From NCBI GenBank assembly GCA_030141605.1, contig JAQGDQ010000605.1, forward strand, positions 15,368-79,367: a stretch of 64,000 nucleotides of DNA. Direction: 5' to 3'. The stretch is from Tubiluchus corallicola (lineage: Eukaryota; Animalia; Priapulida). The notes beneath the pieces are model-generated. The model did not search any database. It was not told the DNA's origin and saw only the letters and a list, made by a program, of their open reading frames with translations. The position numbers and the translations under genes are program-made. Shown here piece after piece: positions 11,041 through 22,117 of this stretch; the first letter of the stretch is position 1, and each line of letters begins with the position of its first letter.

Positions 11041-14000
11041 ATGGTTTCGTTAAAGTTGCTTTTCGTGTTTTCGTTACTATGCCGCGTCTGTATAGCAGAG
11101 CTGACGTTTAATGTTGATTATGACGACGACGGATTTCATGTGAATATAATCAAACAGTCAAAAACCATTCAGGTAAAGAACAGGTGTCTACATTATAGTT
11201 ATAAAACTTTAATGATTCCGATTTAATTGATATGGAGGTTTATTCATAAAACAACTACGATGTTTGTAAGCCTATATTTGGTATATTAAGGGACAAGCAC
11301 ATTGACGAAGAAGCCTGCGTAAGTCAGTAATTGTGTTTTTTCAAATTTTTAATATAGAGTGGAAATTAAAGGACACTATGTATATAATCCTGTATTTGTA
11401 CAAGATGCAAGACCTACATGTATTTTGCTTGGAAAATTTATTATGCATTTTTAATTTTGCAACAGAGTATGATCTGTTATATTTGTCATAGAAATATTTT
11501 GCTTTCAGCAAAGCTTCACCCACAATATTTTGTGAACGCTACAAAGATTCACGCTGTTCACACCAATTATGTAAGAAGCTTTGAAGCACAGTATAAACAA
11601 TTGTATTTATGTTGATACATCAAGTCTAAGAACATCATTTTATTTCTAGATTTTGAAGCACAGTTTAAACAATAGTATTTATGTTGATACATCAAGGCTA
11701 AGAACATCATTTTATTTCTAGATTTTGAAGCACAGTATAAACAATAGTATTTATGGTGATACATCAAGTGTAAGACCATCATTTTACTTCTAGATTTTGA
11801 AGCACAGTTTAAACAATAGTATTTATGTTGATACATCAAGTCTAAGAACATCATTTTACTTCTAGATTTTGAAGCACAGTTTAAACAATAGTATTTATGT
11901 TGATACATCAAGTCTAAGAACATCATTTTACTTCTAGATTTTGAAGCACAGTTTAAACAATAGTATTTATGGTGATACATCAAGTCTAAGAACATCATTT
12001 TACTTCTAGATTTTGAAGCACAGTTTAAACAATAGTATTTATGGTGATACATCAAGTCTAAGAACATCATTTTACTTCTAGATTTTGAAGCACAGTTTAA
12101 ACAATAGTATTTATGGTGATACATCAAGTCTAAGAACATCATTTTACTTCTAGATTTTGAAGCACAGTTTAAACAATAGTATTTATGGTGATACATCAAG
12201 TCTAAGAACATCATTTTACTTCTAGATTTTGAAGCACAGTTTAAACAATAGTATTTATGGTGATACATCAAGTCTAAGAACATCATTTTACTTCTAGATT
12301 TTGAAGCACAGTTTAAACAATAGTATTTATGGTGATACATCAAGTCAAAGAACATCATTTTATTTCTAGATTTTGAAGCACAGTTTAAACAATAGTATTT
12401 ATGGTGATACATCAAGTCTAAGAACATCATTTTATTTCTAGATTTTGAAGCACAGTATAAACAATAGTATTTATGGTGATACATCAAGGCTAAGAACATC
12501 ATTTTATTTCTAGATTTTGAAGCACAGTTTAAACAATAGTATTTATGTTGATACATCAAGTCTAAGAACATCATTTTATTTCTAGATTTTGAAGCACAGT
12601 ATAAACAATAGTATTTATGGTGATACATCAAGGCTAAGAACATCATTTTATTTCTAGATTTTGAAGCACAGTTTAAACAATAGTATTTATGGTGATACAT
12701 CAAGGCTAAGAACATCATTTTATTTCTAGATTTTGAAGCACAGTTTAAACAATAGTATTTATGGTGATACATCAAGTCTAAGAACATCAGTTTATTTCTA
12801 GATTTTGAAGCACAGTAATGACTCTCCTGTTCTGTACATCGGATCAGGAATCACGCAGTTCACGGAAACTACAGGAAATTTCAAAGTGGAAGATTATTTA
12901 ACAGAACGAGTTGGTCTCAATGAATTTTTTGTTTCCACAGACACAGATGACGTCAAAAGTATTAGCATGTATCGTGGTCAGGAATATCAGGTAATTAATT
13001 ATTTCTTGTCGTGGGTTCTACGTAGGAATCTGGAAAGCTGTTGTTTTTGTTTTCAAAAGGTCAAAGGTCAAAGTCATAATATTGAAAAATGTCAAAATAA
13101 ATACGTAGACGTTTGGTCGCATTGTATGCCTGTTTTGCAGAGTTAATTCAAAACGGATGAAACTATTGTCACCTAATTTGACACAAGAATACGTATGGAT
13201 AAGGCCTGGAAATGAATTGCCCTTCGGTTCAAAACGCCAAAGGTCGACAAATGCGTGTTTTTGTTTTATTTTCGTATTTTTGTATACAAGATGTCAGGAC
13301 AAACATGAAACATTTACGACTCTTACATTTATCTACTTTGTGTACTGTGGTCTTTATACGCATGGCATTTAACTGTGTTTTGAATACATTGTATACAGTT
13401 TACTAGTAATGTATGAGTACGAATAAGTCGTCGGTCACCCAAGTACACAACATTCTACAAAATTGTAACATGCAGTATGATTTATACAGAAATGATATTT
13501 TCTATACCTGGTCAATAACGAGGACGCGACCGAGTCTACAGTGCTGTCGCAACTGCCTGCTTTTATTGCCACAGAAACTGCACTGCGCAAGCATTGACAT
13601 GAACTTTGTGTAGAGTTTTCGGTTTTAACCGAAACAATGTTGCTTGCTTTTGAAAACAGCAGTGAGTTTCTATTGTAATACACCCCATTAATTATCTCTA
13701 AATAGGCTGTACTGGAAATACGATTGGACCCTCATCATCATGACCACGTACTCCTCAAGGTTAATAACACCAGTGAAGGTGTAGATAGAATATGGCTTCG
13801 AGTTTATGCTGAAAATGAAGAACACGTGTATGGAGGAGGGGAACAGTTTTCGTATTTTGACCTAAGAGGTCACGATTTTCCCATATGGACTCGAGAGCAA
13901 GGTGCGGTGAAATATGTCATTTGTTTATCACTTGTTCAAATTACACGACAAACTGGTACGTGTTGTCCAAAATTTGTGTTTGAAAGTTGAGAGAGTTGGC

Positions 14001-20000: not shown

Positions 20001-22117
20001 ATGCTTTAATAAGTTTTGCATTATTGAACTTCTTCTAAACGTTAGGGTCACAGAAGTACAGTATCATGACATGGGCGGGTGATCAGAATGTTGACTGGAG
20101 TCTGGATGACGGAGTGGCTTCAACAATTCCGGCTTCACTCTCGCTGGCTATTAGTGGCTTCGGAATAAATCATTTTGATATTGGAGGGTACACGACAATG
20201 TTTGTGATGAAGAGGTCAGAGGAACTGCTACTTCGTTCTGGAGAATACGCCGTATTTACACCTGTAATGCGAACTCATGAAGGTAAAACAATCAGCTATC
20301 AGCTTTTTATTCACTTACTAAGTTAGTCTGGCCTCCGTAGCCACGACTGAATCCGAACATTTAAACAGTTAAGTATCAACTTGTATAAATTAGCCATGCC
20401 CATAGACCCTGTAAGACCCTTAGGCCTGTCTTTAGGCCTACTTATTAATCACTTAAAGCTGACTAATCTCAAGCCAACCATTATGCCAACCAGTCAATCA
20501 ACTAACACACACTACCACGGCCGGATTAAGATCCGAAGAGTCTCCAAGCACTGAAAAGGTTATCGTACCTCCATGTAGAATATAAGCAATACTAACCTGT
20601 AAAATGAAATTTTGTCTTTCGAAATAAAAAAACTTGCAGTAAGATTTATTCACAGTAAATGCTAAGGCATCGGCTTACATTGCGTAAAAAGTGATATCAG
20701 ATTAAAAATATAGAGACTAGATTTGATGAAGGGAGAGCCATTCAGCATATCTGCCCCACCCAATTTCAAGTTCGCGCCACTAGTTCTTCTCTGTTACGTG
20801 CATTTCGCCATTCAATCGTTAGACGGGCACTAGCGCCTACATTTCGGAAACCGTTGCACAAAACAACAGGTGCTGTACTCCTCAGTTCAGATGTGTTAGT
20901 TTGTGACGAACTGCACACGCTCGATAGCTCATGCGTGAGTACAGCGGTAAATTTGAAGTTTTATCTCAAAACTTGCCTAGTTTTAGTACAACACACTGAA
21001 TCTCTTACAGTGACACTGTACTTCAATTTTCGCTTTCGCAAACACGTGCAACCTCATGGAATATTTTGCTGTTAAAATCATGTTAGTTTGTGATGTCATC
21101 AATGGTTGGGCTCGCCCGCCGTTAATTAGGTTTTTAATCTTTTATTTAATTATCAAAAATGCTTTTGCAGTATTAATTGCGTTAAAATGTTAAGTTTTCA
21201 TCGGACTTGAAAATTGGGTAGTATATGATAATCATCCTGTCTTCCTTTAATGGTTAATTCAAGGCTGCAACAAATAACAGATCAGCTTCGGAAAGATAAA
21301 CAAATGAACGAAAATGGAGAAAACGAAAAAATGCTCCATTTGGTTATCAATCAGTCCGATCATCCAACGAACCTATTAATCAATCAGAAAATCTGCAGCC
21401 AACTGACTAATTAACCAACCAATTAAACTACCAACCGACCAAAAAGCCAGCCAAAAAACATTTTATGTATTTAAAAACCACTGTGACAAATCAAGTGACC
21501 AACTGCTCTGAATCTGCTAAAAGATGGATACAGACACAAACATTTTCTTTTCTCTAGGAAATCGACCTGAAGACAATGTTCAAATCTACTCTTCTGAGAA
21601 CATACTGGAAAAATTTGCTCGTTTATGTAACATGTTCACCACGTTGAAAAATTATACCAAGCATCTTATAGAAATCAACAGAAATGAAGGAATATCGGTA
21701 CAGCGACCATTATTCTATCATTACTCAGAGCCTGAGTGGGTTTTCCAGGAAAAATATGAATACCTTTATGGACCAGATTTACTAGTAGCACCTGTGTATA
21801 GACCAAGAATTGCAAACTGGACTGTAAGAATACCTCCAGATACTTGGATACATTTGTGGACACAAAAATCGTATGAAGGCCCGGATGTAGTGGAGGTGCC
21901 ATCTCCTATTGGACAACCACCTGTTTTTTACAGAGAAGGCAGCGAGTGGACTGATGTGTTTCTCAAGCTCGCAGAATTTCCTCTTGTTCCCGACGTTGTT
22001 TCAACTGAACAGCCAACAGAGGCGACTACAAATGGTGCGACTACCATTGCAGGTCGTTGGTTCCAACAGAGATTCGTCATACTTTTACTTGTCATAAAAT
22101 TGTGGTTACGCAGTTAA
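11041..22117 (+). CDS. GH31 sulfoquinovosidase-like (YihQ-like) glycosidase with signal peptide and GPI-like C-terminus, 747 aa; exons 11041-11172, 12802-12990, 13706-13901, 14472-14563, 14894-15038, 15197-15312, 17267-17408, 17757-17851, 19114-19237, 19715-19930, 20046-20282, 21558-22117
   Basis: 12 GT-AG exons sum to 2244 nt in one frame. Motifs GGGEQFSYFDLRG, EQGVGRNK, YFPQPTFVS, LGRQPSLPDW, WIQDWSG..TSFGQRVFWNW, GWMADFGEYLP, WAGDQNVDWSLDDG, DIGGYTT, MRTHEGNRP and PIGQPPVFYR are collinear with E. coli YihQ as I recall its sequence. Confidence 0.93.
11581..12816. repeat. 72-bp minisatellite, 17 units, overlapping the exon 2 acceptor
   Basis: Unit TTGAAGCACAGTTTAAACAATAGTATTTATGGTGATACATCAAGTCTAAGAACATCATTTTA(T/C)TTCTAGATT. 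Confidence 0.98.
14240..14320 (-). mobile_element. SINE head with a tRNA-like A box followed by a 5S rRNA-like segment
   Basis: Minus strand reads TAGTTGAGTGGTTA...ACCGAAGTTAAGTAACGCTGAGCCTGGTTAATGAATGGATG, close to the invertebrate 5S internal control region. Confidence 0.6.
16075..16691. repeat. 37-bp minisatellite, about 16 units, in GH31 intron 6
   Basis: Unit GGACTGGTCTAGAATGATTGAC(A/G)TCTGACCCCACTAA, with one interruption near 16575. Confidence 0.97.
17947..18310. repeat. Compound microsatellites (ATG)n, (CTG)n, (CTA)n, (ATA)n and (TA)n
   Basis: Directly visible; these account for the poly-Ser and poly-Leu ORFs. Confidence 0.98.
18343..18773 (-). mobile_element. 5'-truncated L2/CR1-type LINE 3' end with a (TTA)n tail
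   Basis: Minus-strand translation LLVVPRTQTKTLATRTFSHATLTVWNNLPLNIRSCDDIITFK is typical of an ORF2 C-terminus; it is followed by a UTR and the short-repeat tail at 18343-18423. Confidence 0.75.
19210..19689. repeat. 121-bp tandem repeat x4 overlapping the exon 9 donor
   Basis: Units start at 19210, 19331, 19452 and 19573; each contains TGGTACAAAG|GTATGT. Confidence 0.97.
20771..21250 (-). mobile_element. Family A element, truncated, in GH31 intron 11
   Basis: Reverse complement of about 4691-5175; ends AATCATCCTGTCTTCCTTTAA. Confidence 0.85.

Follow-up and report, generated by a model that had tools for sequence, protein, structure and literature searches.

Few sulfur compounds made by photosynthetic organisms are as abundant as the sulfoquinovose lipids, whose breakdown has so far been regarded as bacterial. 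A locus on the forward strand of a 64-kb stretch of Tubiluchus corallicola DNA (64,000 nt, hereafter the window) raises the question of whether an animal carries an enzyme of its own for this step and, if so, where that enzyme would be placed. A sequence-only reading of the locus had proposed a secreted, GPI-anchored sulfoquinovosidase (SQase).

The gene was confirmed at positions 11041-22117 of the forward strand, to which all coordinates below refer. Twelve exons, delimited by a splice model, by translation and by tblastn of proteins P0001, P0008 and P0006 onto the window, join into 2244 nt, corresponding to 747 codons and a stop without internal stops, and all 11 introns of the joined-exon translation run from GT to AG, in agreement with the intact 747-aa, 11-intron frame that had first been read. 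Reading in frame from the preceding stop, the first ATG is the one at 11041, which lies in a Kozak-like context (gaagaaATGg). Splice junctions 3 to 11 agree with P0001, a 635-aa protein encoded without interruption on a relative's 3041-nt Logan contig and identical to the window protein at 566 of 634 aligned residues (89%); junctions 1 and 2 were based only on aligning the gene with proteins from starfish and amphioxus and of the E. coli type. Fold and search tests were run on P0001 and on single exons as stand-ins for the joined 747-aa protein.

Exon 1 (11041-11172), called by translation, hydropathy and start context, contains the start codon, the predicted signal peptide and the start of the N-terminal beta-sandwich, and exon 2 (12802-12990; tblastn, translation and alignment) continues the N-terminal domain with sequon N50. 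The GH31 N-terminal galactose-mutarotase-like domain was detected on exon 3 (13706-13901; PF13802, E = 7e-7), together with sequons N127 and N128. Exons 4 (14472-14563; GVGRNKST..., sequon N177), 5 (14894-15038), 8 (17757-17851) and 9 (19114-19237; sequon N380) were placed by tblastn and translation, exon 6 (15197-15312; Q285) by translation and alignment and exon 7 (17267-17408; Q311, R324 and W327, with WIQDW...QRVFW) by alignment. Exon 10 (19715-19930; PF01055 and alignment) encodes the predicted nucleophile D428 in GGWMADFGEY, and exon 11 (20046-20282; match to 5aed and alignment) encodes D495 in WAGDQ, Y531 in GGYTT and H560 in MRTHEG. Finally, exon 12 (21558-22117; PF21365, E = 2e-18) carries the GH31 C-terminal beta-sandwich, a linker, an NGA triplet, a hydrophobic tail and the stop. 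Chance resemblance is excluded, because the 82 aa of exon 11 suffice for a match to E. coli YihQ at E = 1e-33.

Judged by its sequence, the product belongs to the YihQ-type sulfoquinovosidase clade of GH31 and not to the ordinary alpha-glucosidases or MYORG. It is identical to the E. coli-type YihQ (P0185) at 337 of 678 positions (49.7%), and all eight key residues are kept in this alignment; exon 11 shows about 70% identity to E. coli YihQ across 78 residues. The catalytic Asp pair falls on D428 in WMADFGE (YihQ D405) and D495 in WAGDQ (YihQ D472, a numbering verified on PDB chain 5aed). The sulfonate triad R301/W304/Y508 of YihQ corresponds to R324, W327 and Y531 and is also found in P0001, and YihQ Q288, Q262 and H537 correspond to Q311, Q285 and H560. 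The roles of these residues, the Gln pair and the His included, are taken as restated in the Results of a preprint by Uchida et al. (bioRxiv 10.64898/2026.02.11.705467). Every motif from which the family had been named (WIQDW, QRVFW, WMADFGE, WAGDQ, GGYTT and MRTHEG) was found in the translation.

The sequence-only reading had suggested placement within GH31 by HMM and BLAST as a check, and in these searches SQases were far closer than alpha-glucosidases or MYORG. P0001 matched six solved SQase sequences with E-values from 1e-216 to 4e-176 (YihQ 1.4e-216) and the best other GH31 protein at 2.7e-36, so that some 140 orders of magnitude separate the two for this query. It scored 819 bits against the YihQ equivalog model NCBIfam NF007746 (cut-off 553) and carries precomputed PF13802, PF01055 and PF21365, as do the window exons, where each domain was detected on single exons (PF01055 on exons 10 and 11). 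With the AlphaFold model of P0001 (mean pLDDT 86.6), Foldseek ranks 1-23 were all SQases, from E. coli, B. megaterium, E. rectale and A. tumefaciens, at TM 0.87-0.89, and YicI came next with 0.74. A 50-row tree, computed without a non-SQase outgroup, contained one branch (SH-aLRT 100) splitting 24 animal rows, the window protein included, from 24 bacterial rows; within the animal group, the window protein and P0001 share a long stem of 0.85 changes per column. E-values, equivalog model, tree and fold all place the gene with YihQ-type SQases, as had been proposed. Membership of MYORG or of the ordinary alpha-glucosidases was ruled out, the E-values being 2.7e-12 for MYORG, ~1e-20 for GANAB and ~4e-15 for GAA.

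Both ends of the protein bear on its location. Residues 1-19 (MVSLKLLFVFSLLCRVCIA) form a predicted signal peptide, in which K5 is followed by LLFVFSLLC and then by the small residues C17 and A19 ahead of E20. Signal-peptide cleavage follows the -3/-1 rule which, applied by eye, makes cleavage likely before E20. The best 10-aa Kyte-Doolittle mean of the leader is 2.41, versus 0.09-0.91 in four bacterial homologues, and hydrophobic N-termini were found in 20 of 25 animal-side sequences (the remaining five being N-truncated) versus none of the four bacterial ones. Several sequons had been listed at first (NNT/NTS, NKS, NST, NYT and NWT); the protein has seven N-x-S/T sites, at residues 50, 127, 128, 177, 380, 593 and 648, and all six within the P0001 overlap are kept in that protein.

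The C-terminus reads ...STEQPTEATTNGATTIAGRWFQQRFVILLLVIKLWLRS, letter for letter the added linker, NGA and hydrophobic tail of the sequence-only reading. GPI signals consist of small residues at omega, omega+1 and omega+2, a polar spacer and a hydrophobic run that reaches the C-terminus without a cytoplasmic tail. The predicted GPI-attachment signal (22030-22114, including the last linker residue T719; rule of thumb and hydropathy) would comprise a candidate omega site N720 followed by G721 and A722, an 11-residue spacer (723-733, TTIAGRWFQQR) and a 12-residue hydrophobic run (734-745, FVILLLVIKLWL; hydropathy 2.87) with K742 inside, then RS. The linker and NGA are identical to P0001 at 18 of 19 positions and the tail is alike in composition only; the P0001 model shows a disordered linker and a helical tail. 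Hydrophobic C-terminal 12-mers were present in 19 of 25 animal-side sequences versus none of the four bacterial ones. Of the signal peptide and GPI anchor originally claimed, the hydrophobic leader and the NGA-plus-tail are there, and the signals themselves, called by eye with rules of thumb, are plausible.

The same enzyme might nevertheless have another address, being held by a short type I transmembrane anchor, shed, or sent to a lysosome or digestive vacuole instead of being GPI-anchored on the gut surface, an alternative that we regard as unlikely but as the most serious of those considered. Homologues span every tail variant: amphioxus proteins carry a basic tail of 9-15 residues behind their hydrophobic run, which makes them transmembrane-like, a hydrophobic end is missing from six of the 25 animal-side sequences, and the hydrophobic run of P0001, at about 19 residues, could span a membrane and is more transmembrane-like than the window tail. 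The preprint, in its available portion, also predicts transmembrane helices for certain echinoderm and chordate proteins and takes up lysosomes in its discussion. However, the short 12-residue run of the window protein, with a Lys inside and only RS behind it, favours GPI over a transmembrane helix, and the N-G-A triplet stands 13 residues upstream of the run, after a Thr/Pro/Glu linker that is nearly unchanged in P0001.

We consider it probable that this intact 12-exon animal gene encodes a YihQ-type product acting as an SQase in the secretory pathway, likely held by GPI on the outer membrane face. By analogy with the bacterial enzymes, its substrates would be alpha-sulfoquinovosides (SQDG before or after deacylation, or SQ-glycerol), hydrolysed by the retaining double displacement of GH31 with D428 as nucleophile and D495 as acid/base, while the sulfonate would be bound by R324, W327 and Y531 and the sugar hydroxyls by Q311 and Q285. 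Signal-peptide cleavage would remove the first 19 residues, the sequons would carry glycans and a GPI anchor attached at about N720 would replace the last 27 residues, so that the catalytic domain would be extracellular or in a vesicle lumen. If the other animals described in the preprint are a guide, the enzyme would work at the digestive epithelium on dietary algal or cyanobacterial sulfolipid. Glycerol or diacylglycerol would go to the animal, and the released sulfoquinovose would stay for microbes.

It is improbable, in our estimation, that this clade member has drifted to another substrate, for example a 6-substituted or anionic alpha-glucoside of endogenous glycoconjugates. Such a drift would fit the long stem shared with P0001; moreover, we found no enzyme assay of any animal SQase in print, and animals are not known to catabolise sulfoquinovose. 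On the other side stand the complete set of pocket and catalytic residues, the closeness of exon 11 to E. coli YihQ and the modeled fold of P0001, which is indistinguishable from that of ligand-bound SQases.

Two tandem arrays copy splice sites of the gene. Repeat search detected a minisatellite of 72 bp x 17.2 in intron 1 (11580-12816), reaching into exon 2, each unit of which repeats the acceptor (tttctag) together with 14 nt from the start of exon 2; TCTAGAT occurs 17 times and an exact 21-mer nine times. These 17 acceptor-like copies could compete with the true exon 2 acceptor. A second array of 121 bp x 4 (19210-19689; repeat search) copies the 3' end of exon 9 and its GT donor, the donor 22-mer lying at 19228, 19349, 19470 and 19591 and thus providing three extra donor-like sites in intron 9. 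The decoy reading of the intron 1 array ends at an in-frame stop, and read-through at the extra donors also runs into stops. A silent or decaying copy that is intact only by chance, untranscribed or mis-spliced through these sites at exons 2 and 9, would be compatible with such arrays and with the outcome of our searches, in which no RNA match for the Tubiluchus corallicola gene, and no RNA or DNA holder of the gene stretch, was found. We nevertheless judge it very improbable in view of the stop-free 2244-nt frame with canonical splice sites throughout, and of the agreement with the relative's uninterrupted coding contig, in which key residues and shared sequons are kept.

This is a genuine animal gene, because it has introns and is accompanied within the 64-kb stretch by Bcl-2-family, FOXO and VWA genes; the FOXO gene, 28 kb off, is closest to that of Priapulus caudatus (55% identity at 100% query coverage, with 41-52% for the next best) and points to a priapulid-like host. 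That the gene is a bacterial contaminant, or came by horizontal transfer very recently and was mis-assembled into an animal scaffold, has a negligible probability: the identity of the protein to enterobacterial and Firmicute YihQ, about 50%, is as high as that to other animals' proteins, but the 11 spliceosomal introns already refute this origin, animal genes share the stretch, the low GC of the gene (0.33-0.42) continues into its flanks, and the protein clusters with animal proteins across the fully supported branch.

Novelty had been flagged for checking, and it is low, as this kind of gene is already described. RefSeq names animal homologues "sulfoquinovosidase-like" in Ptychodera, Antedon, Asterias, Branchiostoma, Patella, Haliotis, Lytechinus, Diadema and others, and the preprint of February 2026 by Uchida et al. 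reports "Animal SQase" genes from 65 animal species. It describes their signal peptides, their tails of GPI or transmembrane type and their expression in digestive organs, and raises a possible SQ supply to the microbiome. In its available text the preprint is in-silico and RNA-seq work only ("recombinant" has no occurrences), reports no convincing downstream SQ enzyme in one clam, and lists nine phyla without priapulids ("Priapul" likewise has no occurrences). With the idea in print for 65 species, the window gene is a further, divergent example, and what may be new is a host phylum outside the list in that text.

We hold only tentatively, with rather less than even confidence, that the gene encodes a working GPI-anchored ecto-SQase of a priapulid-like (scalidophoran) worm, with a membrane tail gained independently of those in molluscs and deuterostomes. 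If so, the animals opening algal sulfolipid themselves would include a tenth phylum and a second lineage of ecdysozoans, SQase would have been present in early bilaterians, and membrane tethering would have evolved repeatedly as a way to digest membrane lipid at the cell surface. An animal enzyme taking off the head group at its own digestive surface would bring marine invertebrates directly into this part of the sulfur and carbon cycles and would let them control the amount of free sulfoquinovose passed on to their microbes. The window gene, probably from an as yet unlisted phylum and with an unusually plain predicted GPI signal, could be one more construct for the animal SQase assay that the field still lacks.

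Compared with known systems, the product shares the three-domain GH31 architecture of E. coli YihQ (PDB 5AED/5AEG/5OHT) and the other solved bacterial SQases (B. megaterium 8R56, E. rectale 6PNR and A. tumefaciens 5OHS/5OHY/7OFX), with an identical Asp pair, Arg/Trp/Tyr triad and His. Its Gln-Gln pair is that of YihQ, whereas the A. tumefaciens enzyme has a Lys-Glu pair. Bacterial SQases, thought to be cytosolic (bioRxiv 10.64898/2026.02.11.705467, as far as its available text goes), have neither signal peptide nor C-terminal extension; relative to YihQ, the window protein has a 12-residue N-terminal insertion in the hydrophobic leader and 45 extra C-terminal residues (linker and hydrophobic tail), and its seven sequons compare with 0-3 in four bacterial homologues. 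Unlike bacterial SQase genes, the window gene is split by 11 introns. MYORG, GANAB (glucosidase II), lysosomal acid alpha-glucosidase and maltase-glucoamylase have the GH31 barrel as well and reside in the secretory pathway, the predicted location of the window protein; MYORG, GANAB and GAA are far more distant than YihQ by the E-values given above. Another parallel is the "Animal SQase" group of Uchida et al.: the window protein groups with the animal rows where animals and bacteria split, and shows, as far as the available text describes them, the seven required residues, the single PF01055 barrel and the leader of that group, together with a hydrophobic C-terminal tail resembling those of many molluscs and some echinoderms and chordates. 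It differs from that group and from the RefSeq proteins in being just 50-58% identical to any named animal protein and in sharing its long stem with P0001 alone.

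Judged by its sequence, the sulfoquinovosidase (SQase)-like gene at 11041-22117 on the forward strand is a genuine animal gene in a good state of preservation that belongs to the YihQ-type sulfoquinovosidase family. It lies in an AT-rich region (GC 0.33-0.42) with many mini- and microsatellites, where GH31-like pieces can be read in the plus-strand stop-to-stop frames. Exon junctions were set at canonical sites after mapping three homologues onto the window by tblastn, giving 12 exons separated by 11 GT-AG introns of 115-1954 nt and a coding sequence of 2244 nt, which encodes 747 residues and ends with a stop codon at 22115-22117. 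Between the start ATG at 11041 and the preceding stop there is no other in-frame ATG, and the start codon is flanked by A at -3 and G at +4. Junctions 1 and 2 rely on alignments without gaps to proteins of starfish, amphioxus and the E. coli type; junctions 3-11 are matched by P0001, an uninterrupted 635-aa protein of a relative, encoded on a 3041-nt Logan contig and identical to the window product at 566 of 634 positions (89.3%). Such a coding contig free of introns hints that transcription and splicing of the orthologue may proceed alike in the relative. The 12-exon model and its open 747-aa frame bear out the gene described in the sequence-only reading, and all the motifs and sequons listed there were found in the product. 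With three homologues as queries, tblastn matched 12802-22105 only, and a further SQase copy within the window was rejected.

The product begins with a leader (MVSLK, LLFVFSLLC, RVCIA, then E20) whose best 10-residue hydropathy is 2.41 and directly after which homology to YihQ, the bacterial GH31 sulfoquinovosidase, starts. N-terminal hydropathy reaches at least 2.0 in 20 of the 25 sequences on the animal side of our animal/bacteria comparison, the remaining five being N-truncated models. The C-terminal extension carries, in order, a Thr/Pro/Glu linker, N720-G721-A722, an 11-residue spacer, FVILLLVIKLWL and RS. Of the 25 animal-side sequences, 19 end in a hydrophobic 12-mer (mean at least 2.0), as compared to none of four bacterial ones. 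The linker and NGA are identical in P0001 at 18 of 19 positions, the tail being similar in character only, and in the AlphaFold model of P0001 the linker is disordered and the end of the chain forms a helix. By the usual rules of thumb, the tail of the window product is a good candidate for a GPI signal; the product is probably targeted to the secretory pathway and to a GPI anchor, and we lean somewhat towards anchoring itself. A transmembrane anchor, or some other address, appears less likely for the window product, whose hydrophobic run lacks the length and the apolar character of a comfortable transmembrane helix. The corresponding run of P0001 (about 19 residues) gives a less clear picture, and the accessible text of a preprint (Uchida et al., bioRxiv 10.64898/2026.02.11.705467) describes transmembrane helices in the SQases of some echinoderms and chordates, together with GPI signals in numerous molluscs as well as in certain echinoderms and chordates. 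Three animal homologues without a hydrophobic tail were observed to end in KDEL (P0167, Diadema setosum), HEEL (P0020, Antedon mediterranea) or ADEL (P0123, a Ptychodera flava isoform), and these ends resemble signals for ER retrieval. One tailed and one untailed SQase copy appear to be kept in sea urchins. The term KDEL does not occur in the accessible text of the preprint.

Three Pfam GH31 domains were matched by single exons of the gene, and exon 11 alone (82 aa) matched E. coli YihQ with an E-value of 1e-33 in native numbering, which places D472 and Y508. Over its length the window product is identical at 337 of 678 positions (49.7%) to P0185, a Shigella/E. coli-type YihQ within which the PDB segment sits at an identical position. 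Sulfoquinovosidase residues are known by the term 'QQRWY'. All eight YihQ key residues examined are kept in the window product: Q262, Q288, R301, W304, D405, D472, Y508 and H537 correspond to Q285, Q311, R324, W327, D428, D495, Y531 and H560, respectively. The roles of these residues are taken from the accessible Results of the preprint (10.64898/2026.02.11.705467), where the findings of Speciale 2016 and Abayakoon 2018 are restated. The PDB sequence search, NCBIfam, AlphaFold and Foldseek analyses were conducted with P0001 as a stand-in for the window product. Against all PDB sequences, P0001 retrieved six SQase sequences with E-values of 1.4e-216 to 3.8e-176, as compared to 2.7e-36 for the next best GH31 enzyme, CjAgd31B, 6e-30 for YicI, about 1e-20 for GANAB, about 4e-15 for GAA and 2.7e-12 for MYORG. 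It scored 819 bits with the NCBIfam YihQ equivalog NF007746 (cut-off 553), and its AlphaFold model, computed from an alignment of 40 rows (mean pLDDT 86.6), retrieved only sulfoquinovosidases at Foldseek ranks 1-23 (TM 0.87-0.89) before a drop to YicI at 0.74. The sequence-only reading had proposed a sulfoquinovosidase and named clustering with alpha-glucosidases or MYORG as the contrary outcome; with P0001 as stand-in, the PDB scores, NF007746 and Foldseek all favour sulfoquinovosidases over either identity, and the placement stands.

The introns and the three animal genes found within the same 64 kb indicate an animal gene. A single-exon ORF of the Bcl-2 family (24329-24946; Bcl-2 domain E-value 3.6e-18) is encoded on the reverse strand, opposite to the SQase gene and 2.2 kb downstream of it; a Protein Atlas search returned this family without an informative taxon. 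The second is a two-exon FOXO gene (49804-50949 and 51447-51935, reverse strand) with Forkhead and FOXO-TAD domains, an exon of which best matched Priapulus caudatus FOXO (55% identity over 100% of the query, E-value 3e-102), then a Logan protein (51% identity), the next named matches being from horseshoe crabs (41% over 100% or 52% over 64% of the query, E-values about 1e-59). This one gene suggests, with moderate confidence, that the host is priapulid-like (scalidophoran). The third, a VWA-domain ORF (62687-63763, forward strand; E-value 5e-20), carries a hydrophobic leader of its own as well as Pro/Gln-rich and acidic stretches. A long His/Thr-rich frame at 58011-58727 stems from a degenerate simple repeat of CA/TG type and was discarded as a gene. 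A quick maximum-likelihood tree with 50 rows, computed with no bootstrap and without a non-SQase outgroup, contained the window product, 22 named animal proteins, three Logan proteins and 24 bacterial proteins, five of the latter being metagenome or Logan proteins and bacterial by presumption. One branch with an SH-aLRT of 100 splits 24 animal rows, window product and P0001 included, from the 24 bacterial ones; the two Logan proteins left ungrouped fall among echinoids (P0129) and Firmicutes (P0187). Bacterial contamination was rejected on the 11 introns, the animal neighbour genes and this animal-side position. The window product is paired with P0001 on a long stem (0.85) for which the tree fixes no place among animals, and no Priapulus protein was present among the best 120 SQase matches in each of two homologue searches.

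Two tandem arrays multiply splice sites of the gene. The minisatellite at 11580-12816 (72 bp x 17.2, 97% matches) occupies the 3' portion of intron 1 and extends into exon 2, each unit copying the acceptor (tttctag) and the first 14 nt of exon 2 and thus generating 17 acceptor-like sites; reading from a decoy acceptor hits an in-frame TAG, so that the last copy alone would be productive. The array at 19210-19689 (121 bp x 4, 98% matches) copies about the last 28 nt of exon 9, the GT donor and the beginning of intron 9, the 22-mer at the exon 9 donor recurring at 19228, 19349, 19470 and 19591. The three downstream donor copies, if used, would add 121-nt steps, out of frame and with stops. Intron 6 carries a 37-bp minisatellite of about 16 copies (16075-16691) and intron 8 (TAC)x61, (TA)x40 and (ATA)x28 runs (17960-18424). 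In a run with the same species label, 13 short contig pieces resembled 19700-22300 (85-99% likeness), all in intron 11 (20744-21178) and none on exons; these contigs continue into unlike sequence, which suggests a dispersed repeat, and a 126-aa frame over it had no Pfam match.

The idea of an animal sulfoquinovosidase is not new. The NCBI name "sulfoquinovosidase(-like)" is borne by 15 of the 19 named animal matches listed in our homologue search, and a 2020 survey of molluscan glycosidases, in its accessible part, includes sulfoquinovosidase among GH31 activities. According to its accessible text, the February 2026 preprint of Uchida et al. (10.64898/2026.02.11.705467) describes homologues of SQase in 65 species of animals from nine phyla, with signal peptides in all but rotifers, seven conserved key residues and expression in digestive organs of other taxa; it proposes a hand-over of sulfoquinovose to microbes and contains no enzymology. 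Our search of the literature on sulfoquinovosidase in eukaryotes or invertebrates, or with GPI, found no other animal study, and priapulids are not mentioned in the accessible preprint text. The window may add a divergent SQase member from a phylum probably unlisted there. It also contains the two curious tandem arrays at the exon 2 and exon 9 splice sites. We propose that the product would enter the ER co-translationally, be N-glycosylated at some of its seven sequons and receive a GPI anchor near N720, with its catalytic domain facing the lumen or the outside. By analogy with YihQ, it might hydrolyse alpha-sulfoquinovosides with retention, and its substrates would be sulfolipid (SQDG), or SQDG that has lost acyl chains, derived from phototrophs or detritus that the animal ingests. 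Unlike the window product, none of the four bacterial SQases reaches an N-terminal hydropathy of 2.0 (range 0.09-0.91), and the window product runs 45 residues past the end of YihQ.
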